64,000 bases of DNA from IMG/VR virus record IMGVR_UViG_2595698332_000001, positions 4,528 through 68,527 of that record; one strand, 5' to 3'. The notes under the pieces are model-generated. The model worked only from the letters and a program-made list of their open reading frames with translations, did not search any database and was not told where the DNA came from. How positions within the stretch are numbered: position 1 is the stretch's first letter; every line of letters starts with the position of its first letter. This DNA comes from a virus (Duplodnaviria; Caudoviricetes). Position numbers and translations under genes: made by a program. This document shows, in pieces, positions 4,273 through 61,769 of this stretch.

Positions 4273-5247
4273 ATGCCTGTTCAAAACCGACACGAAGTGA
4301 AGACGAAGGACGGCGTTGACCTCGATGAACTGCTCGAAAAGTCGCGCACCCTCATCGACATCTACAACGACCAAGAGCGCCCTTTCCGCGACATGTTCGC
4401 GGAGATGGTGGACCAGCAGACCTTCTACAGTGAGCCGCAGAACGCGGATGTCTACTGGGAGGAACTCGCAGAGGGCGAACACCCGCGCACCGTGGGTCGT
4501 GAGCCGGAGGACAACCAAATCTTCATCCGCGACAAGAAGTTCGGTCGCTCGGTGGGGATGACTCAGGACTTCATCGAGAAGCACACTGAGGAGCGCGTCC
4601 TGCGGAAGATTCGCAACATGCTGGAGGGTGCGGACAACACGATGCGCGAACTCATCATCTCCGCGCTGGAGACCGGGTACGCGCAGGGTCAGGAACTCTG
4701 GTACGAGGTTCCCGACTACGGCGAGTACCAGTTCTCGCAGACGCACAGCCACAAGTTCGATACCACGGACTCGCTGTTTGACAACGACGGCACCGACGAC
4801 ACGGCCTACCCGGCCCACCGTCACATCGAGAAGGCGAAGCAGGAACTCACCCACCACGGGTTCGAGGGGCCGTTCGTGGCCCTCGTCTCGTCCGAGTTCA
4901 AGTACGCCCTCCGCGACGAAATCGCGTGGGACGCGCAGTACCACATCCCGATGGCGACCGGGATGCGCTCGGCGGACATCTTCGACCTCGACATCGTAAT
5001 CGACGGCGTGCGGCTCGTTGAGTCGCCGTGGATGACCGGCATGAAGATGTGGGTCACGCAGGCCAACAACGGCTCGCCCGTGAAGGTCTACGAGGACTCC
5101 CCGGTCCACCTCCGGCAGGGTAGCGAGGGCGGCGGTCCCGTCCTCTCGCCCGGCGACTTCGTGGGCGCGAACGCCTACGCTCGGTGGGGCGTCAAGAACG
5201 TGGACCCGCTCCGTGCGGTCTACGTCAACGCCACGCAGGTCGAGTAG
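4273..5247 (+). CDS. Major capsid protein (HK97 fold)
   Basis: 324 aa; position, strong codon bias, GGAG upstream; WEELAEGE and ARWGVK segments. Confidence 0.82.
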   Translation: MPVQNRHEVKTKDGVDLDELLEKSRTLIDIYNDQERPFRDMFAEMVDQQTFYSEPQNADVYWEELAEGEHPRTVGREPEDNQIFIRDKKFGRSVGMTQDFIEKHTEERVLRKIRNMLEGADNTMRELIISALETGYAQGQELWYEVPDYGEYQFSQTHSHKFDTTDSLFDNDGTDDTAYPAHRHIEKAKQELTHHGFEGPFVALVSSEFKYALRDEIAWDAQYHIPMATGMRSADIFDLDIVIDGVRLVESPWMTGMKMWVTQANNGSPVKVYEDSPVHLRQGSEGGGPVLSPGDFVGANAYARWGVKNVDPLRAVYVNATQVE

Positions 5248-23604: not shown

Positions 23605-24474
23605 TTACCCGCGGTGGAACGGGCACGACGAGCCTTCGGAGTCGTCGGAGTCCTCGACCACTTCAGGTGGGAGGTTTCGAGAACCCTTTTTCTGGACCCA
23701 TCGGTCGTTTCTGTAAGTAGATTCAACTGAACTCAGTTCAGTCTTGGTTTTTTGCTGTTCGATTTTTTCTCTTTCAGTCATTTCACGAACAACAGCGTCC
23801 GTGAGCATCGAGTCGCGCTTGAACGGGATGACCTGAACGATAGGAGTCCCGGCTTCTGCGACACCTTCCCAATCGCCGCCCGTCCACATGAACGGCGCGT
23901 TGATGTAGTTGAAGTAATTGTCGGCGTCAACGACCCCGGAGAACGTCTGCCAACGCGGCTCGATGCGGTTCATCGGGTTCGTGACGAGGAGAGAGTAACC
24001 TTCTGGAACTTTAATACACCAGTGGTTGTGGAATTTTAGAACGGGCCACTCGTGATTTGGGAACGCCTCTCCGCCGACTTGTTCCAAACTGTGACTGGAT
24101 ACCATTTCTCGCTGAAATCCCCACTCATATGAGACGTATCCGTCTTCAGCGTAGAATTGGACTTCTGCGGCGAGTGGTATGAGCCAACCCATAGTTAACG
24201 CTTCCATGAACGGCATACACCGCTTGACAGTAGACGAACTGATAGATTTTCGCTCCGTTCCATCCATGAACGGATTCAGATTTCGATACCACTCGGGAAG
24301 GATTTTGTTAGCCGGGACAGGCTCAGGAATCGCCCCGTAGAGTTCCTTTTCAGTGACGAACTCGATGAGTCGGTCTTCGTCCGGCTCGTCCTCTGCGCTG
24401 GAACCATCGGGTCTGACGTAGTTTGAGAGGTCTCTAACGGTTTCAGTTGCTCCAGTAAGGTCGAACATCTTCAC
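23605..24474 (-). CDS. DUF6065-like protein
   Basis: P.PA...LPEWY, TVKRCMPF.EA...GW, PEGYSLL.T.P.NR, SGVVDAD and GTPIVQVIPFKR motifs; lower GC. Confidence 0.65.
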   Translation of the reverse strand: MKMFDLTGATETVRDLSNYVRPDGSSAEDEPDEDRLIEFVTEKELYGAIPEPVPANKILPEWYRNLNPFMDGTERKSISSSTVKRCMPFMEALTMGWLIPLAAEVQFYAEDGYVSYEWGFQREMVSSHSLEQVGGEAFPNHEWPVLKFHNHWCIKVPEGYSLLVTNPMNRIEPRWQTFSGVVDADNYFNYINAPFMWTGGDWEGVAEAGTPIVQVIPFKRDSMLTDAVVREMTEREKIEQQKTKTELSSVESTYRNDRWVQKKGSRNLPPEVVEDSDDSEGSSCPFHRG

Positions 24475-24522
24475 TAAACTAAACGTGGTCTGTAGACTTA
24501 ACTCTATCGCCGTTAATTCTTT
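24472..24522 (-). promoter_or_regulatory. Conserved viral promoter repeat, copy 1
   Basis: AAAGAATTAA-N8-AGAGTTAAGTC-N9-CGTTTAGTTTAGTG, ending at the start codon 24474. Confidence 0.7.
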
Positions 24523-29735: not shown

Positions 29736-29827
29736 AGTTGGAAGGTTGTGTCGGCACGGATGCCGCCGCCCCGGTAGGGTCCGAGGCGGTTACGACTCCG
29801 TACAAACAAAGAAGGAAGTCGAGCGAC

Positions 29828-33792: not shown

Positions 33793-33880
33793 GGTTGTGT
33801 CCCGCGGTTCCGGCTTTCATCGAGGCTCGGGAGACCTCTATTTTCAAACTCGTGGCCGGGTGCGAAAAAGAGCGGTTAGG

Positions 33881-39328: not shown

Positions 39329-39743
39329 CGGCGTCCTCGATGGCGTCTTCGATGGCGCTCACGGCGGTCGTTCGGTCGCCATCCGCCTGCTCGGCTTCGA
39401 GCAGGGCTTCCAGTTCAGCGACCGAGAGGTCGCGGGCGTTCATCTGCTCGGTCAGGTCAGCGACAGAGAAGTCGGCGGGGTTCAGCGGCGACTCAGTTAC
39501 CCCCGTAGCGTCGTCGCCGTCGTCTTCCGCGTCTTCCTCGTCGGCGGCCTCATCGGGTTCCTCACCCGGAGGCGTCAGGTCTGCGTCGTCCACGTCGCCG
39601 TAGAGGACGCGAGTGATGCGGCCCTGCGGATACTTCGAGTAGCACCGCTCGACCGCCGCCTCGGCGTCGAGACTCGCACCCGAAGTCCGGTACTCTTGTT
39701 CGTCACCGTTCGGGACGGTAACGACGAAGCCGTACTCAGGCAT
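39321..39743 (-). CDS. Hypothetical acidic protein
   Basis: 140 aa; C-terminal SV.DL...E.....RTTAV.AIE helical domain. Confidence 0.7.
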   Translation of the reverse strand: MPEYGFVVTVPNGDEQEYRTSGASLDAEAAVERCYSKYPQGRITRVLYGDVDDADLTPPGEEPDEAADEEDAEDDGDDATGVTESPLNPADFSVADLTEQMNARDLSVAELEALLEAEQADGDRTTAVSAIEDAIEDADE

Positions 39744-40840
39744 TAGGCCCGAGCCTCCACTTCCGCCGCCGCGGCGTCCCAGTCCACGTCGTCCGGGTTG
39801 TCCACCTCGTCGGCGGCGAACTCGCGGAGTTCTTCGGGTTCGACCGAGCCGTCGGTGCGGGCGAAGTAGTTGATGAGGTCGTCCAGCACAGCCGGGATGT
39901 TGGCCTCGCTGTCGCCCTCGTCGTCGGCCTCGTCGGCCTCGTCGTCAGCCGTCTCCGCGGGAGCCTGCGCGGCCTGTGCGCCGCCGTCGGTGGCCTTCGC
40001 GGGTTCTGCCTCGGCTTCCGGCTCGGGCGCGTCAGCGGCCTCGTCAGCCCCACCGTCGCCGTCGCCGAAGTTGTCGATGGTGATGCGCTCGCCGGTCTTC
40101 GAGTCGAGGAGGATGGGCGTGGAGTACGTCACCTCGCCGTCGTCGCCTTCCAGCGACTCCTCGATGATGAACAGTTCCATCTCGCGGCCCTCGATGCCGT
40201 CGCGGATGGCCGGGTCCATCGTGGTGAGCCAGCCGTGCTGTTCGTACTTCGGGTTCCCGTCTTCGCGGGTGCCGCCGTCGTCGTTGATGATGCCGTCACC
40301 TTCGGCGGTCAGCAACTTGGCGAGCGTGCGAACCCACGACTTGTTCTTGAGGAGCATCGAGACCTCGCCGACGACGATGGCGTTGTCTTCGGTCTCCACG
40401 TCGAGGTCGCTGTTGACCTCGATGTCGTCTCCGGCCTCGACCGCCACACCAACGGGGGTGTAGAAGTAGTCGTTGCCGCCGAACGTCTCGGAGAAGCCGA
40501 GAACGCGCGGGTGGTTGAGGATTTCCTCGGCGGTCATCTCGTTGCCGTCGCGGTTCAGGACGAGGCCCGTGTCCGGGTCCACGTCGAAGAACTTGCCGGG
40601 CGAGAAGACCTTCCACGTATCGGGCTTGTCCTCGCGCTGGAAGACGATGCCGTCCAGCACCTTCACGTCCTCGAAGCCGACGACGAACGTGTCGCCGTAC
40701 TGCGAGTCGAAGGCGTTCACGCGGTTGCCGACGACGGACAGCGCGCTGTACTTCTGGAGTTTCAGCGTGATGTCATCGAAGTCGCCGCCGCTGGTCGAGG
40801 AGCCGGTGCCGCTTCCGCTGTAGGAGTTGTATCGGGACAT
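39743..40840 (-). CDS. Hypothetical protein (possible ssDNA-binding)
   Basis: 365 aa, strong codon bias, acidic tail; heads the replication operon. Confidence 0.65.
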   Translation of the reverse strand: MSRYNSYSGSGTGSSTSGGDFDDITLKLQKYSALSVVGNRVNAFDSQYGDTFVVGFEDVKVLDGIVFQREDKPDTWKVFSPGKFFDVDPDTGLVLNRDGNEMTAEEILNHPRVLGFSETFGGNDYFYTPVGVAVEAGDDIEVNSDLDVETEDNAIVVGEVSMLLKNKSWVRTLAKLLTAEGDGIINDDGGTREDGNPKYEQHGWLTTMDPAIRDGIEGREMELFIIEESLEGDDGEVTYSTPILLDSKTGERITIDNFGDGDGGADEAADAPEPEAEAEPAKATDGGAQAAQAPAETADDEADEADDEGDSEANIPAVLDDLINYFARTDGSVEPEELREFAADEVDNPDDVDWDAAAAEVEARA

Positions 40841-40900
40841 TGTTGTGTTGTGGTTGTGTTTGCTCCGAGTTCCGGTAGGGCACGTCGTTCGTGCCTACCC

Positions 40901-40965
40901 AAAGAATTGAGTCGTTCAGACTTAACTCTATCGCTAAGAGTTGAGTCTTGCCGAGTCAATTCTTT
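40901..40965. promoter_or_regulatory. Promoter-repeat variant flanked by inverted AAAGAATTGA
   Basis: AAAGAATTGA...GACTTAACTCTATCG...TCAATTCTTT. Confidence 0.55.
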
Positions 40966-40989: not shown

Positions 40990-41043
40990 CCGACCGGCGG
41001 AGTCGAACCGCCGACGTAGAGTGTTTACGTGCGCCAGCGTCGG
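40990..41043 (-). ncRNA. D-armless tRNA-like element
   Basis: CCGAC/GTCGG closing stem; ACGTA-AACACTC-TACGT hairpin; GGCGG-TTCGACT-CCGCC T-arm. Confidence 0.55.
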
Positions 41044-41804: not shown

Positions 41805-41877
41805 TAGCCCTGCGCGGAGTCGAACCGCGGTCCCGAGTTCCAAAGACTCGGATGATTGGCCGCTACACCACAGGGCT
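41805..41877 (-). tRNA. tRNA-Gln(TTG)
   Basis: Acceptor AGCCCTG/CAGGGCT; anticodon arm CGAGT-CTTTGGA-ACTCG; T-arm CGCGG-TTCGACT-CCGCG. Confidence 0.95.
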
Positions 41878-41879
41878 TC

Positions 41880-42318
41880 TAAGGTGACGCTCGTCACACG
41901 CCACCACTTGCTTGTCACTTGATTGCTACCACACTGTGCCACGCGGTTTCGCTGTTAGGCTACCCAAGAACGTGCGGTTAACCTCGGGCCGGGCGACCAG
42001 TCCGGCTAATATAGGCGACGAGTTGTGTAACAGGTGATTTGATGGTGGACTGCTCTTTTGCGTTGGCGGCAGTCCTCGGGTTTCGGCCAAAATCAGTTCA
42101 GGCGTTCCTCGGAGGTTCAGTGTAAAAGGCGGCGCGAAGGCCGCCTGCCCTACCGGAACTAACGGCGGGACACAACCTTCCGAGGGCCGTACAAGCCCTC
42201 ACGAGAACCCACGCCGCGCCCGCTCTTAAGGATTGATGACCGTCAGAACAGAGGCGGGGGGCCTCGGGGGGTGTGTCCTCGGAACGAGGTTCGCCGCCCG
42301 TTGGGGCAACGCCCTCAC
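41880..42318 (-). ncRNA. Putative non-coding RNA upstream of tRNA-Gln
   Basis: No convincing ORF; downstream of promoter repeat; hairpins; contains the antisense of the mRNA leader motif. Confidence 0.45.
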
Positions 42319-42366
42319 TAAACTAAACGCGACCTGATGACTTAACTCTGTCGGCTTCAATTCTTT
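42316..42366 (-). promoter_or_regulatory. Conserved viral promoter repeat, copy 2
   Basis: AAAGAATTGA...AGAGTTAAGTC...CGTTTAGTTTAGTG. Confidence 0.7.
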
Positions 42367-42459
42367 GGGAGAGCCTGAAATGTACGGTATCCTTCACGAA
42401 ACCGCACATCTGGTGAGCAACAATTAAGTCTTTGGGCGTTCTTTCTTTCATCGTTGGTT

Positions 42460-43062
42460 ATGAGCCAAAGCAAGAGCGGGGGTGAGAGGACACACAAGAA
42501 CAACGAGCGTGTGGTTCGTTGTCCTGCCACATACCCCGACGGTTCACAGTGCGAGAAAGAAGTTCTTTCTCGCGCTTTGCACCTTCACGTACTCCGTAAG
42601 AGCGACGAAGCGCACGGTGAATCAGGTGACATACCGCCGAATCTCGACGTTGAACACGCCGAGGTCGTCGGTGAGAAAGAAGTCGAGGTGGACTACCCCG
42701 AAGAACGCGAGCAGGAGGAAGTCGCCCGGCAGTGCCCGTACTGTCGGCAGGTGTTCCGCGGGAAGCAGGGCCTCGAAATTCACTTCGGGCAGGTCGTCGG
42801 GCGGATGAATCACCCGAAAGACCGCGACGAGTTCCCCGAGGCGACCGAGTGCCCCATCGTCCGGGTTGACGACAACAAGAACGTTATTGATGTCGTCCAA
42901 GAAGGCGCGGTGATGCCCTCGACCCGTCAGCGGAAGGAAGGACAGCGGCGCGAAGATGAGACGGTCGATGATTTCATCGCCCGGCTCCGCGCTTCGGGCC
43001 GGGACGACCAAGCCGACGCGGTAGAAGAAGCCCTTCAGGAGATGGGCGAAAAACTCTCTTAG
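42460..43062 (+). CDS. C2H2-type zinc-finger protein
   Basis: CPA..C...LHLHV..H and CPYC...GLEIHF motifs. Confidence 0.7.
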   Translation: MSQSKSGGERTHKNNERVVRCPATYPDGSQCEKEVLSRALHLHVLRKSDEAHGESGDIPPNLDVEHAEVVGEKEVEVDYPEEREQEEVARQCPYCRQVFRGKQGLEIHFGQVVGRMNHPKDRDEFPEATECPIVRVDDNKNVIDVVQEGAVMPSTRQRKEGQRREDETVDDFIARLRASGRDDQADAVEEALQEMGEKLS

Positions 43063-45207: not shown

Positions 45208-46371
45208 ATGAACGCAGACCTACCAATCACCCTCGAAAACTGCGACGTAGACGTACAGCACAATCTCGACCCCGGTCGAAGCATCGTCGTCGTCCCGAAA
45301 ACGCTGGACGGCGCGCTGACCGACCGGCAACTCGTAGATTACAAAGACCAACGAGTGAAGTTCTTGTCATGGCTGTTGAACGTCGGGAAGAACCCCCACC
45401 GCGCGTCAGGATACGCGCCATACACCGTCTATAGCGACGCTTACCGGACGGCTCGGTTCGACCAGTGGGTGTGGGAACAGCGGGACGAATACAAGTACCC
45501 ACCCGATGAGCAGGACGCTCACGACTACATCGACCACCTCGCCTACTCCGACAAAGGGCAGGTCGAGAAAGGCAAACTTCAGGAAGGCATCGAACACCTC
45601 AACAAGTGGCTTCAGCACACGACCGGCGAGCCGGAGTGGGAGTTCAAAGTCTCGTTCCGCTCGTCCAGCGGAAACCTCGAACCCCGCGACTACCTCTCGG
45701 CGGAGGAACGCCGCGCCGTCAGGCAGGCCGCCCTCAACGCCGGGAACATCCCCGCCTACAACTCGCTGTCACCAGCGGAGCGTCGCGGCTGGAAGCAACA
45801 CATCTCGAAGATTCTCGGCAAGCCCTACGAGGACGTAACCCCCGAGGACTGGGGCGAAGTTGACGGGTGGGAAGTCACCTCGCTCGTTTGGGCCAGTCTC
45901 GACGCCGGGTTCCGACCCGATGAGGTCGGCAAGGCGAAGGTCTCGTGGGTGGACACCGAGAACGGCGTCCTTCGCATCCCCCACGAGGACTCCTCGAAGA
46001 ACGAAGGGAACTGGACAGTCACGCTCACCGACCGCACAACGACTGCGCTTCAACGGTGGCTCCGAGAGCGGGAGAACCGTCCTCGGTATGATGACTCCGA
46101 ACTCCTGTGGCTTACCAGCCACGGGAACCCCCACGGCTCAAAGAGCCTGTCTCGCCTCATCAAGCGGCTCTGCGACGAGGCTGGCATCGACTACGAGAAC
46201 CGGCAGATGTCGTGGTACACGATTCGTCACTCCGTCGGGACTCACATGGCGCACCACCGCGACCTGAAGGCCGCGAAAAGTCAACTCCGACACAAGAGTC
46301 CGAAGACGACCATGCAATACGACAACGTATCCGTGGAAGACCGGCGCGACGCCCTCGACAAGATGGGCTAA
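45208..46371 (+). CDS. int: Tyrosine integrase
   Basis: GFRPDE, K, YTIRHS and LRHKSPKTTMQY catalytic residues. Confidence 0.93.
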   Translation: MNADLPITLENCDVDVQHNLDPGRSIVVVPKTLDGALTDRQLVDYKDQRVKFLSWLLNVGKNPHRASGYAPYTVYSDAYRTARFDQWVWEQRDEYKYPPDEQDAHDYIDHLAYSDKGQVEKGKLQEGIEHLNKWLQHTTGEPEWEFKVSFRSSSGNLEPRDYLSAEERRAVRQAALNAGNIPAYNSLSPAERRGWKQHISKILGKPYEDVTPEDWGEVDGWEVTSLVWASLDAGFRPDEVGKAKVSWVDTENGVLRIPHEDSSKNEGNWTVTLTDRTTTALQRWLRERENRPRYDDSELLWLTSHGNPHGSKSLSRLIKRLCDEAGIDYENRQMSWYTIRHSVGTHMAHHRDLKAAKSQLRHKSPKTTMQYDNVSVEDRRDALDKMG

Positions 46372-47370: not shown

Positions 47371-47808
47371 CTACTCCGCGCTATACCGAAGCGTGTAGCC
47401 GTCCATCTCCAACTCCACGCACCCCGAGTCGGGGTCGGGGTCTACGTGGATGTCTACTCGCTCGTTCCCTTCGTGGAACGCTTGCTCGATGTGGAGGACT
47501 CGTTCTTCGGCGTAAGAAGAAACGTCGTCCCACTCGGTGATGTCGGGCAGGTCGATGCGGTCGCCGTCCGGGGTGTCGAGTTCATCGTACTCGAAGCGGT
47601 ACGTGCGGGTTTCCTCACACGACCACCCCTCGCCCCACCGGCCCTCGACGTAGCGACAACGCTCGTGGAAGATGGCCGCGCCATCCTCGATTACGGGGTT
47701 GTCAATGTCGCCGAGTTCCCACTCGTGTTCGTGAGCGTGAGGCTCGATGATGCCGCCGCGGATGAGGTCACGCCGGGAGGTTCCCGGCGGGTAGTTGCCC
47801 CCGACCAT
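47371..47808 (-). CDS. Hypothetical protein
   Basis: 145 aa acidic. Confidence 0.7.
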   Translation of the reverse strand: MVGGNYPPGTSRRDLIRGGIIEPHAHEHEWELGDIDNPVIEDGAAIFHERCRYVEGRWGEGWSCEETRTYRFEYDELDTPDGDRIDLPDITEWDDVSSYAEERVLHIEQAFHEGNERVDIHVDPDPDSGCVELEMDGYTLRYSAE

Positions 47809-47870
47809 TAGACCTCAGCCTCCTCGTTGCCGAGCGATGCGACTATCTGTTCCGCGTGCTTGTTGTTCAT
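47808..47870 (-). CDS. 20 aa micro-ORF
   Basis: MNNKHAEQIVASLGNEEAEV; directly follows the leader motif; TAATG coupling. Confidence 0.5.
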   Translation of the reverse strand: MNNKHAEQIVASLGNEEAEV

Positions 47871-47933
47871 AGGTTGTGTCCCGCCCCCGTTGGGCGGAGA
47901 AACCGCCGCCGGGGAGTGACCCCGGTTACGTCG

Positions 47934-49708: not shown

Positions 49709-49789
49709 AGGTTGTGTCCCGCCGTCTTTGTTTTAGGACGCAGGCGGCTTCGTCCGATGAGGCGTCGGGGTCGTGAACCCCGTGGAGTC

Positions 49790-51553: not shown

Positions 51554-51692
51554 AGTTGGAAGGTTGTATCCCGCCCCGTTGGCGGGGAGGACACCGGGCG
51601 GGACTCGAACCCGCCGCCGCCCTGTCGGTGTCGGTCGCTTACTCCCTACTCAAAGAATAGAGTCGTGGAGTATTAATTCTTTCTGCGAAGAA

Positions 51693-52601: not shown

Positions 52602-52697
52602 TTTCGGTTGTGTCCCGCCGTCATTTGTAGTGCGCCCAACGGGTTGGCGCGAAACGCAGTCGGGGTCGTGAACCCCGAGGGGTCTTAGCCTACTGCG

Positions 52698-56339: not shown

Positions 56340-56579
56340 CTACGCCTCGATGTCGTCCACCGACAGAACCATCGGCTCGTCGTCGGTGTCTATGGCGTTC
56401 TCTGCGGTGAAGAACACGCCAATAGTCTCGTCGTCGTAGCGGTGGAAGTCGTAGAACTCCGTGTAGTTCTCGGCGTCGTCAAACGCTTCGTGAAACGCGA
56501 CGAGGGCGTCTTCACGGGTCGAAGCCTGCGTTAGCAGTTCGTAGCGGTGCGGCATCTCGGGTGTGGTTGTGTCCATCAT
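56340..56579 (-). CDS. Hypothetical protein
   Basis: 79 aa from MMDTTTPE. Confidence 0.6.
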   Translation of the reverse strand: MMDTTTPEMPHRYELLTQASTREDALVAFHEAFDDAENYTEFYDFHRYDDETIGVFFTAENAIDTDDEPMVLSVDDIEA

Positions 56580-56729
56580 TTTCGGTCGAGTCCCGCCGTC
56601 TTCACGGGGTTGGGCACCCCGAAGAAATGAAGCGGGTAACGTTAATTCTTTCGCTATGCGTTTCACCCACTCGATGTGGGCAGGAGCCGGAGGGGAGTCG
56701 AACCCCTCGGGGGCCTGATTACCCGCGGC

Positions 56730-57694: not shown

Positions 57695-57708
57695 AGGTTG
57701 TGTCTCCG

Positions 57709-57843
57709 TTAGTTCGCAGTGCGTTCGTCGTGGCAATCGCCGCAGTAGTACCCGATGTAGAGGCCCCGTCCCGTGTTCCACGGGATGAAACTCTCGCCAC
57801 ATCTGATACATCTCTTTTCGCCGGGGTTGCTGATGGCACTCAT
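57709..57843 (-). CDS. Zn-finger microprotein, 44 aa
   Basis: CIRCG...YCGDC. Confidence 0.55.
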   Translation of the reverse strand: MSAISNPGEKRCIRCGESFIPWNTGRGLYIGYYCGDCHDERTAN

Positions 57844-58363: not shown

Positions 58364-58469
58364 TTTTGGAAGGTTGTGCCCCCCCGATGAGGCTGGCCGT
58401 CCCGCCGCCGGGGGAAGGCGGTGGGGTCATCGCCAAGACTTCACGCTATCGCTTCAATTCTTTGCGTCG

Positions 58470-60616: not shown

Positions 60617-61769
60617 TTTCGGTTGTGTCCCGCCATTAACGCTGGCGTGGCTTTTCGCGCACTCTTGTTCGCCGGGAGTGCGAGCCGGGGTCAGGGGGTC
60701 GCGTGCCTAATTCCACGCGACCCCTTACTGACCTGTAAGTCCGGTCAGGTTGCGAGCCATCATCGTCGTGAGTAATCCTTTCGTGCTACCTTTCCCACCC
60801 TCATCGGGTGGTACTCGTCACCGAAGGTGCTACCGTTGCGCCGTTGGTTTGCGGGTTCCTGTCGGGGCTAACTCTCTTTAAAGAGGACTCCTCCGATGGG
60901 GTTCCGGGCGTGTTTCCTGCCCTTTTTTCGCGTTGTCGGTAACTCCACGTCGTGGGGGGTTCACCTCTCGGTGGCCTTTCCTCGACGCTTCAGCGTCCCG
61001 ATTTCCGCGGCGGTTGACTTTGGCTCGGTGGTATCTCGGGGGTTCCATCGCCGGTCGGTCTTCGTCAGGTCGTCGTTCGTGACTCGAACCCCTTCGGGGG
61101 TCACGAACTCGCTTTCCGCACTTCGGTCGAATCCACTTCTGCCCTTTGGGCCTTCATCCTGCTTACGCTTTCAGAAGGGTTCCAAAGGGGGGTGCTGGTC
61201 TGCCATTAGGGCACGAATTAATCACCGTGTCCGAGTTTCACTCACCGTCCCCGCTAAGGGCACATCCGGGGAAGTCCCGAGGTGGGATGTATTCGGGGGT
61301 GCGCGCCTACTTCCACATCCACGTCCCGTAAGGGACGCTTCGGCGTCGCCCGAAGACCGCGACGGGGCTTGCTTAAGATACGTGGGGTTTGGGGTCGAAC
61401 TAAGCGTGGTCGCACCCCCAAAGGGGGCAACACGCCTTTTAGGTATTCGGCGGCTACTACCACGCTCCACCCCATAGGGGTGAAGCCCGAGCAACCGTCC
61501 CCGTTTTAGCCCCTCTTAACATCGGCGAGGTTCCAAAGGAACCAGCGTTGGTCTGAGGGGCATCCACTTCGCGTTTAAATAACGCGGGTAACGTACCTGA
61601 CGACCGCCGGGAGGGGGGAAGACCCCCTAACACGCCAAACGTGTGTGCGGTCATCGTCGTCACGCCGGAGCCGTCGGGGAAGTCCCGAGTCGCCGCGACC
61701 GGCGACCGTCCGTGCGTGAGAGGCAGTTTGTCGTAGGATGGGAGGGTACATAAACCTGTCGCAACCTGA

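Follow-up and report, generated by a model that had tools for sequence, protein, structure and literature searches.

Two haloarchaeal tailed viruses offer the closest described parallels to the element reported here. In phiH1, the duplex between an RNA called Tant and an early lytic messenger RNA (mRNA) is cut by a host ribonuclease (RNase), which leaves the mRNA untranslatable; this account follows the discussion section of PMC8707807. In HF2, promoter activity and start sites of the intergenic repeats of class I were measured by Russ et al. (PMC8707807), and the sections of that paper devoted to the repeats place the TATA element within the middle motif and the transcription start 26 nucleotides (nt) downstream, within the last motif. 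The element studied here lies at positions 42124 to 42318 of a 64,000-nt stretch of viral DNA (the window; positions 4528 to 68527 of IMG/VR record IMGVR_UViG_2595698332_000001). It carries, between two hairpins and ahead of a transfer RNA (tRNA) gene, the single inverted copy (the anti-leader) of a short leader shared by minus-strand genes of the virus. This unannotated element is real and conserved, and it very probably has a function. The best single reading, which we infer and hold tentatively, is that it works through pairing with the shared leader. Such an RNA would resemble Tant, as portrayed in that discussion, in being a haloarchaeal tailed-virus RNA complementary to the 5' part of early mRNA. 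Tant, however, acts in cis from opposite a single target (PMC8707807), whereas the RNA proposed here would act in trans, 1.3 to 18 kb from at least 11 targets and through matches of 11 to 17 nt, and the element, unlike Tant, appears to lie in the leader of a tRNA precursor. It falls outside the definition of a cis-antisense RNA because nothing, neither gene nor leader, lies opposite 42124 to 42318.

The window belongs to a Mincapvirus-like haloarchaeal tailed virus: over 3 kb it is 96 to 99% identical to HRTV-2, HRTV-7, HRTV-11, HCTV-6, and HCTV-15, which are mincapviruses (Hafunaviridae); HRTV-2 and HRTV-7 are available as isolates. The full record is 68,527 base pairs (bp) long, with direct terminal repeats at its ends. 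By the gene layout taken from the HRTV-2 annotation, late structural genes occupy the plus strand up to about 23.7 kb, and a minus-strand block of replication genes has tRNA-Gln (41805 to 41877) as its last member. A short plus-strand block then opens with gp72 (42460 to 43062) and closes, after more genes, with the integrase (45208 to 46371), from where minus-strand genes run again to the right end of the window. tRNA-Gln and gp72 are 582 bp apart, and the inverted leader copy falls in the gap that separates them. No feature is annotated in this gap in HRTV-2, HRTV-7, HCTV-6, or HRTV-11, and the open reading frames (ORFs) within 41878 to 42459 reach at most 54 amino acids (aa), in agreement with an earlier sequence-only reading that had placed the copy in an ORF-free stretch. 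None of six GenBank mincapvirus records has a feature under the 61-nt unit that includes the anti-leader. In an Rfam covariance-model search, tRNA-Gln alone passed, and no match fell on 41903 to 42480 at E values up to 10. A literature search found no paper on this motif, leader, or small RNA in mincapviruses, the papers that contained the motif being unrelated to archaea, and the portions of PMC7230728 covered held nothing on such a leader or RNA.

The shared leader motif, GGCGGGACACAACC, is 11 to 14 nt long and stands 0 to 11 nt ahead of the ATG in 11 minus-strand ORFs. On the plus strand, positions 42162 to 42181 read ACGGCGGGACACAACCTTCC. Searching the window for the 14-mer GGTTGTGTCCCGCC with up to two mismatches gave nine matches against 0.88 expected; eight are in the sense orientation for minus-strand genes, and the ninth, at 42164 to 42177, is opposite and has no ATG within 18 nt past it. 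The sequence-only reading had named this as the sole opposite-orientation copy without a start codon, and it was right to do so. The nearest plus-strand ORF behind the inverted copy, 33 to 34 codons at 42233 to 42337, is unconserved and was rejected as a candidate. When an 11-nt core (up to two mismatches) had to be followed, no more than 11 nt away, by an ATG that opens an ORF of 40 aa or longer, 11 sites were found, all in the minus-strand sense and none on the plus strand. Exact matches of 11 nt or more between the unit and the window occur at 10 sites, again all minus-strand sense, every one 0 to 11 nt ahead of an ATG, while 100 shuffles of the unit gave a mean of 1.87 sites and a maximum of 7. 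The complementarity to several start regions that marks a trans base-pairing RNA was thus present. The sense leaders are as follows, with the longest exact complement to the unit where one was scored.

60621 to 60634, minus strand: sense leader 4 nt ahead of the ATG of a 352-aa ORF; 14-nt exact complement (60634)
58372 to 58385, minus strand: sense leader 8 nt ahead of the ATG of a 96-aa ORF; 11 nt (58385); promoter repeat at 58463
57696 to 57718, minus strand: bipartite sense leader, GAACTAACGG plus ACACAACCT, 1 nt ahead of the ATG of a 263-aa ORF
56584 to 56597, minus strand: sense leader with two mismatches, 4 nt ahead of the ATG of a 79-aa ORF; promoter repeat at 56651
52606 to 52621, minus strand: sense leader 4 nt ahead of the ATG of a 302-aa ORF; 16-nt exact complement (52619)
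51558 to 51577, minus strand: sense leader 8 nt ahead of the ATG of a 99-aa ORF; T-arm-like element 25 nt upstream
49709 to 49725, minus strand: sense leader 1 nt ahead of the ATG of a 454-aa ORF (annotated in HRTV-2 as a DUF932 protein); 17 nt (49723)
47871 to 47885, minus strand: sense leader 1 nt ahead of an ATG that opens only 20 codons; 15 nt (47885)
40843 to 40882, minus strand: leader of ORF 39743 to 40840 (gp69 of HRTV-2), bipartite, TGCCCTACCGGAACT (15 nt) plus ACACAACC
33793 to 33806, minus strand: sense leader directly ahead of the ATG of a 113-aa ORF; 13 nt (33806)
29738 to 29779, minus strand: bipartite leader, CCCTACCGG plus GACACAACCTTCC, 8 nt ahead of the ATG of a 61-aa ORF; 13 nt (29754)

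A further leader, at 56343, is complementary to the unit for 12 nt. These lengths amend the sequence-only reading in places. It had given 16 nt for two leaders, which is correct at 52619 and one short at 49723, and 17 of 18 for the leader at 51558, which agrees with the 17 of 20 positions (17 of the first 18) that match over 51558 to 51577. The separate match that it noticed for the second half of the anti-leader, upstream of ORF 40840, exists and runs for 15 nt (40868 to 40882) rather than 13, and its 9-nt match at 29771 to 29779 is also there, within the same leader as the 13-nt core match. Three leaders are of this two-part kind, each matching the unit in its CCCTACCGG block and again in its ACACAACC block; they precede the ORFs starting at 40840, 29735, and 57694. 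The leader of the DUF932 gene is also carried by its orthologues in four related genomes (G001, G002, G003, and G005, degenerate in the last). At 47808 to 47885, a perfect leader is followed by an ATG with 20 codons, and a 145-codon ORF begins 62 nt later, at 47808; the 20-codon frame may represent a small upstream ORF, or else an error in the reading frame.

The single orientation of the leaders and their tight spacing to the ATG, with no fixed spacing to a TATA box, point to a role at the RNA level, and by these sequence features the motifs most likely sit in RNA and are not promoter parts. We rejected the idea that the leader is the core promoter of leaderless mRNAs: an AT-rich box stands just ahead of the motif in only about half of the copies, too near the ATG for the TATA box of such an mRNA. 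The distance from promoter repeat to motif is about 75 nt for the repeat at 58463, about 55 nt for that at 56651, and about 110 nt, measured to the ACACAACC core, for that at 40965. The remaining leaders lie in gaps inside gene strings, often with a hairpin or T-arm-like element 25 to 48 nt upstream. Haloarchaeal mRNAs mostly lack both leaders and Shine-Dalgarno sites, which makes a shared leader puzzling in itself. A leader acting as an rRNA-complementary enhancer, or an anti-leader acting as an rRNA mimic, was considered and rejected on one Haloferax 16S rRNA: the best duplex, at -20.4 kcal/mol, equaled the shuffle mean of -20.4, 47% of shuffles were equally good, and no core match was present within two mismatches. 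In the same Haloferax genome, a pattern scan gave 16 forward and 26 reverse matches (control, 6 and 16), and no match occurred in the duplicate form expected of rRNA copies.

T-arm-like elements (a 5-bp stem with a TTCGANT loop) also occur outside the called tRNAs, at 56691 to 56707, 51598 to 51614, and 40996 to 41012 of the window, all on the minus strand, and in G001, G002, G003, G005, and G009; about 0.2 per genome would be expected by chance. In relatives they often lie 37 to 48 nt upstream of a leader core, and the one ending at 51614 in the window lies 25 nt upstream. Their role may be that of tRNA-like cut sites, dividing up long early transcripts.

On the minus strand, the inverted copy falls within the following arrangement.

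42310 to 42366, minus strand: promoter repeat, three motifs in HF2 class I order
42201 to 42318, minus strand: 5' structured part of the predicted leader RNA, about 75 to 190 nt in relatives and poorly conserved
42182 to 42200, minus strand: hairpin H1 (GAGGGC/GCCCUC), immediately 5' of the anti-leader
42162 to 42181, minus strand: anti-leader, reading GGAAGGUUGUGUCCCGCCGU, the reverse complement of the shared leader
42147 to 42171, minus strand: small hairpin Hm, in which the conserved block CGGUAGGGC (42155 to 42147) is predicted to pair with GUCCCGCCG from the anti-leader
42124 to 42146, minus strand: hairpin H2 (AGGCGGC/GCCGCCU, stem 42127 to 42146), then UUUU
41878 to 42123, minus strand: spacer between H2 and tRNA-Gln, with a hairpin at 41989 to 42005 (loop UGGUCG) and a TATA-like TAATATA (plus strand) at 42007 to 42013
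41805 to 41877, minus strand: tRNA-Gln (UUG), called by ARAGORN and by Rfam RF00005 (52.1 bits)

The promoter repeat, which the sequence-only reading had correctly put upstream of the inverted copy, lies about 140 nt from it and consists of AAAGAATTGAAG (42366 to 42355), AGAGTTAAGTC with a TATA-like TTAAGTC (42349 to 42339), and CGTTTAGTTTAGTGAGGGCG (42329 to 42310). Other members of the repeat family stand on the minus strand at 58463, 56651, 40965, and 24522, and a sixth copy, on the plus strand at 40901, is paired with that at 40965. The three-motif order, the TTAAGTC-type TATA element, and the recurrence ahead of early/middle operons are common to these repeats and to the HF2 class I repeats as described in PMC8707807. 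The window repeat has the three ordered motifs, the TATA element about 26 nt before the predicted start, and the recurrence before operons that characterize the class, and on its sequence we place it with the HF2 class I repeats. The comparison was made through the motif strings quoted in the text of PMC8707807 and crosses genera, HF2 being a Haloferacalesvirus, and the repeat sequences are only partly alike: one relative of the window (L036) has CCTCTAATAGAG where HF2 has CGTCTNNTAGAG. By analogy with the 26-nt rule of HF2 (PMC8707807), minus-strand transcription would start at about 42318 to 42319, which coincides with the upper coordinate given by the sequence-only reading. The likeness to HF2 is in the promoter; no HF2-group sequence matched the unit by BLAST, and the text of PMC8707807 that deals with HF2 describes neither a leader motif nor an anti-leader. 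A scan for bacterial-type promoters and terminators, which is unsuited to archaea, returned none of either.

Two copies of the repeat differ from the rest in their setting. At 40901 to 40965, two facing repeats form a near-palindrome upstream of ORF 39743 to 40840, which may, by analogy, be a two-way promoter like the one at 17 kb of HF2 in the account of PMC8707807. At 24470 to 24522, the last promoter motif is followed at once by an ATG, which would give a nearly leaderless mRNA where the other copies are followed by leaders of about 40 to 60 nt; this fits a start inside the last motif.

The two hairpins that the sequence-only reading had drawn around the anti-leader are present in the DNA (GAGGGC/GCCCTC at 42182 to 42200 and AGGCGGC/GCCGCCT at 42127 to 42146), and their stems differ among relatives and yet remain paired. 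H1 is found in all eight sequences compared, with differing stems and loops (CCGAGG/CCUCGG in G001 and G002), and in G009 one of its minus-strand pairs is a G.U, which on the plus strand would be an A.C mismatch. The H2 stem is likewise kept with different letters in eight of eight sequences, and a run of four U residues follows it in three of the six compared for that feature. Hm is predicted in most of the eight and leaves GGAAGGUUGU, about ten bases, unpaired between H1 and Hm, as do most folds of 92 to 119 nt. Two G.U pairs of Hm in the window would be mismatches on the plus strand, and the sole variable base of the conserved block CGGUNGGG is the predicted bulge of Hm. Hairpins with a UGGUCG loop (CGACCA on the plus strand) recur elsewhere: besides the one at 41989 to 42005 of the window, they lie around the tRNA genes of G001, G009, and L036, and the same loop is found in H2 of G001, G002, and G009.

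In a BLAST search of a phage collection, only six near-identical mincapvirus records matched. The five GenBank mincapviruses keep the unit at 98 to 100% identity. Among the five close genomes compared, the few changes in the unit sit in the loops of Hm and H2. More distant relatives came from pattern scans of IMG/VR and of genome contigs and are G001, G002 (the same as L106), G005 (with near copies L005 and L093), G009, L036, and L371. The degenerate patterns gave at least 252 matches, mostly due to chance; among the matches listed, 21 passed a context filter and seven were real relatives (L005, L028, L036, L040, L064, L093, and L142). L371 was newly added by the scan, and L283 was picked out by eye. 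Searching for related loci with gp71 as the query found none. In G001, G002, G005, and G009, the proteins gp66, gp69, gp71, and gp72 are 37 to 74% identical to those of the window.

All six divergent relatives have the same minus-strand order: promoter repeat, a variable stretch of about 75 to 190 nt, H1, anti-leader, the CGGUNGGG block, H2, and a tRNA array. In a 360-column alignment of the intergenic region from seven divergent sequences, with a mean column identity of 53%, the only long invariant run is GGTTGTGTCCCG, 12 consecutive columns, so that conservation of the putative RNA is highest in the seed. Relatives that keep the leaders and lack the inverted copy, which would have spoken against the sequence-only reading, did not turn up among the genomes for which the syntenic region could be inspected. 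G003, in which five exact leaders occur and the inverted copy is missing, is uninformative on this point because its contig lacks the equivalent of the window from about 34 to 46 kb; G004, G007, and G008 have one core match apiece. A functionless relic of an inverted duplication would look like a copy of the leader module with no gene behind it, as this element does. We regard that explanation as most improbable, since 12 invariant columns stand against a background of 53% identity and six divergent relatives keep the copy at the same position.

In relatives, further tRNA genes fill the place of the window spacer (41878 to 42123), and the distance from H2 to the first of them is short.

G001: about 8 to 10 nt from H2 to the first tRNA
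G002: about 6 nt, to a tRNA-like 5' end uncalled by ARAGORN
G005: about 12 nt
G009: about 17 nt
L036: about 30 nt
L371: tRNA-like 5' end directly after H2

The starts past H2 in G002 and L371 (GGCUGGUGUAGCUCAG) resemble tRNA 5' ends and were not called in the bacterial mode of ARAGORN; they may belong to intron-bearing archaeal tRNA genes. Because the gap between H2 and the tRNA is too small for a separate promoter, the tRNA precursor of these relatives has the anti-leader within its 5' leader. The cotranscription with tRNA that the sequence-only reading proposed is, on this spacing, almost forced in the six relatives, with the tRNA about 6 to 30 nt past H2, and it is less sure for tRNA-Gln of the window. 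There the array is reduced to tRNA-Gln, 245 nt from H2, with the TATA-like box at 42007 to 42013 between them; judged by its position, that box could serve tRNA-Gln separately, and H2 with its UUUU may end an RNA of about 195 nt. The spacer itself is nearly invariant among the five close genomes, and part of it is 73% identical to G001. Overall, we consider it probable that the element is transcribed on the minus strand together with the tRNAs.

This placement also suggests a structure that acts only in cis within the tRNA-precursor leader, in attenuation, stability, or RNase P processing, the likeness to the leader having arisen by inverted duplication. The element always stands directly ahead of the first tRNA, hairpins with similar UGGUCG loops recur around viral tRNA genes, and the unit copies the entire leader module, hairpin included, all of which such a structure would accommodate. 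It would leave unexplained, however, why conservation is strongest in the unpaired core while the stems change freely, and a Haloferax cassette has the unit without any tRNA; we think a purely cis-acting structure quite improbable. That cassette lies on the chromosome of Haloferax sp. S1W (G006, about 781.6 to 783.7 kb; L283), where a tRNA-Leu, an integrase, a gp72-like gene, the anti-leader unit, and an CAAAGAATTG box occur together. The integrase is 67% identical to that of the window, and the promoter-like CAAAGAATTG box is directed back across the unit, so that the order of promoter-like box, anti-leader, and terminal hairpin recurs. The locus looks like an integrated element carrying a tRNA-less cassette.

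For one target, the leader and the unit change together. The spacer of the gp69 leader is that of its own genome's unit: CCCTACCGGAAC in both the window and G005, CGAAGTGGCGG (also given as CCGAAGTGG) in G001, and ACCGAAAGTGG (also given as CCGAAAGTGG) in G002. Among predicted gp69 duplexes, own-genome pairing was best in five of five columns and four of five rows. This covariation, a pattern read from aligned sequences, fits selection for pairing. Of the compensatory changes between unit and leaders that the sequence-only reading had called for, a candidate case was seen at gp69, for which gene conversion could also account, and no own-genome excess was seen elsewhere.

The same comparisons bear on the possibility that the motif is a site for a protein, viral or host, acting on RNA or DNA at each operon, with the inverted copy controlling the tRNA transcript or gp72 without any RNA pairing. 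An invariant core of 11 to 12 nt is typical of such sites, the flanks show no general covariation, and the zinc-finger-like gp72 adjoins the unit in five of seven viruses and in the Haloferax cassette beside the integrase. Several observations count the other way. G005 keeps the unit and the leaders and has no gp72 homologue at an E value below 1e-5; the zinc-finger match of gp72 (zf-C2H2_4, E = 0.01) is weak and lies under the curated Pfam cut-off; the sense copies point one way and are tightly spaced to the ATG and not to a TATA box, which argues for a role at the RNA level; and an RNA-binding protein that recognized the sense motif would not recognize its complement on a minus-strand RNA. 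A protein site is accordingly, in our estimate, unlikely, though it deserves more weight than a structure confined to cis. The gene concerned is the divergent neighbor of the element.

42460 to 43062, plus strand: gp72 (HRTV-2 numbering), with its own TTAAGTC box at 42424 to 42430

The function could, alternatively, reside on the plus strand, in a read-through transcript whose sense copy of the leader serves as a decoy or as a far-upstream leader of gp72. Long counter-transcripts cover about 70% of the HF2 genome, according to the parts of PMC8707807 that treat them, and the motif shares its strand with gp72 in the viruses as well as the Haloferax cassette. No plus-strand promoter-like box lies upstream of the unit, however, and no conserved plus-strand ORF follows the motif. 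In five genomes gp72 keeps its own TTAAGTC box about 30 to 45 nt ahead of its ATG, whereas the motif is about 150 to 280 nt from that ATG, compared with 0 to 11 nt for true leaders; the Haloferax cassette has it downstream of gp72. Folding energies give the plus strand z scores as good as those of the minus strand, as set out below. We judge a plus-strand function very unlikely.

For the 202-nt RNA of the window, the minus strand gave z = -3.03, with none of 200 shuffles folding as well, and the plus strand z = -1.46; raw folding energies were better on the minus strand in seven of eight sequences. Among the G.U pairs, 30 of 195 minus-strand pairs compare with 9 of 168 on the plus strand. Since folding does not tell the strands apart, it is the promoter repeat and the tRNA genes that make the case for the minus strand.

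Several results weigh against pairing between the minus-strand RNA and the leaders. With composition controlled over 119 nt, z scores ranged from -0.94 to -3.95 on the minus strand and from -0.59 to -4.24 on the plus strand, the plus strand being better in five of eight sequences, and the minus-strand surplus of G.U pairs may be a mere effect of base composition. In its minimum-energy fold, the 202-nt RNA has part of the anti-leader paired. The unit is a complete inverted copy of the leader module, hairpin included, and complementarity would follow from such a duplication alone. Gene conversion between inverted repeats 1.3 kb apart could explain the covariation at gp69 equally well, and outside the core the flanks of the other leaders match their own unit no better than the units of other genomes. 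Only five to six leaders clear the GC-rich background by duplex energy. One promoter class serves both the anti-leader and some of its supposed targets, which clouds the regulatory logic, and no leaders were found within 30 kb of the Haloferax cassette. These points keep pairing with the shared leader, although the best single reading, somewhat short of an even prospect. The role of a master RNA that shuts off or licenses translation, as the sequence-only reading proposed, is a conjecture.

Were the pairing reading correct, the sequence from 42124 to 42318 would be the 5' part of a minus-strand transcript that starts at about 42318, from a promoter of the HF2 class I kind, and runs into the viral tRNA gene or genes. 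Its 3' module would consist of H1, the roughly ten unpaired bases GGAAGGUUGU, Hm with the rest of the anti-leader, and H2. The RNA would end either at H2 with its U run or where RNase P cuts at the 5' end of the first tRNA, leaving a leader fragment of about 120 to 260 nt. The unpaired bases would seed pairing with ACACAACC(UUCC), 0 to 11 nt before the AUG of at least 11 early/middle mRNAs, all from the minus strand, and opening of Hm would lengthen the duplex to 13 to 17 bp. A duplex so near the start codon would block access of the ribosome, or would become the substrate of a duplex-specific RNase as in phiH1 Tant/T1. In this way one RNA could damp the whole viral gene set, with its supply coupled to that of the viral tRNAs.

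The elements of such a mechanism have precedents elsewhere. RNase P cleavage at the 5' end of a tRNA would free a precursor leader, the 3'ETS-leuZ RNA of Escherichia coli is cut from a tRNA precursor, and the tRNA cluster of phage T4 holds small stable RNAs whose function is unknown. The RNA proposed here would share with these two that it is a by-product of a tRNA precursor or a neighbor of viral tRNAs. Like the small RNAs that act by base pairing in trans in bacteria, phages, and archaea, it would have a short and conserved seed, predicted here to be unpaired in most folds, set between hairpins and complementary to sites next to several start codons; its targets, in distinction from theirs, would be the virus's own operons, reached through one shared leader. 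We know of no example in an archaeal virus of a trans-acting small RNA with many targets, and the literature search listed none. In its most specific form, the proposal is that the 5' leader of the viral tRNA precursor, freed by RNase P, is a trans antisense RNA that silences the virus's own early/middle operons through the 11- to 17-nt leader matches, and that the cassette beside the Haloferax integrase could silence incoming relatives, a form of RNA-based immunity. This combined proposal is possible and, on balance, doubtful.

Gene timing in archaeal viruses is poorly understood, and for the HF1/HF2 group the authors, in the passages of PMC8707807 concerned with regulation, could suggest only unknown virus factors acting at the repeats. 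Whichever mechanism holds, the shared leader marks a regulon. If the pairing is true, one conserved RNA with matches to the start regions of about a dozen operons would be a concrete switch of gene timing. As an antisense regulator with many targets it would be the first in an archaeal virus, and the long noncoding stretch ahead of viral tRNA arrays would acquire a function. Should the mechanism hold, it would represent antisense control in a new variant form.

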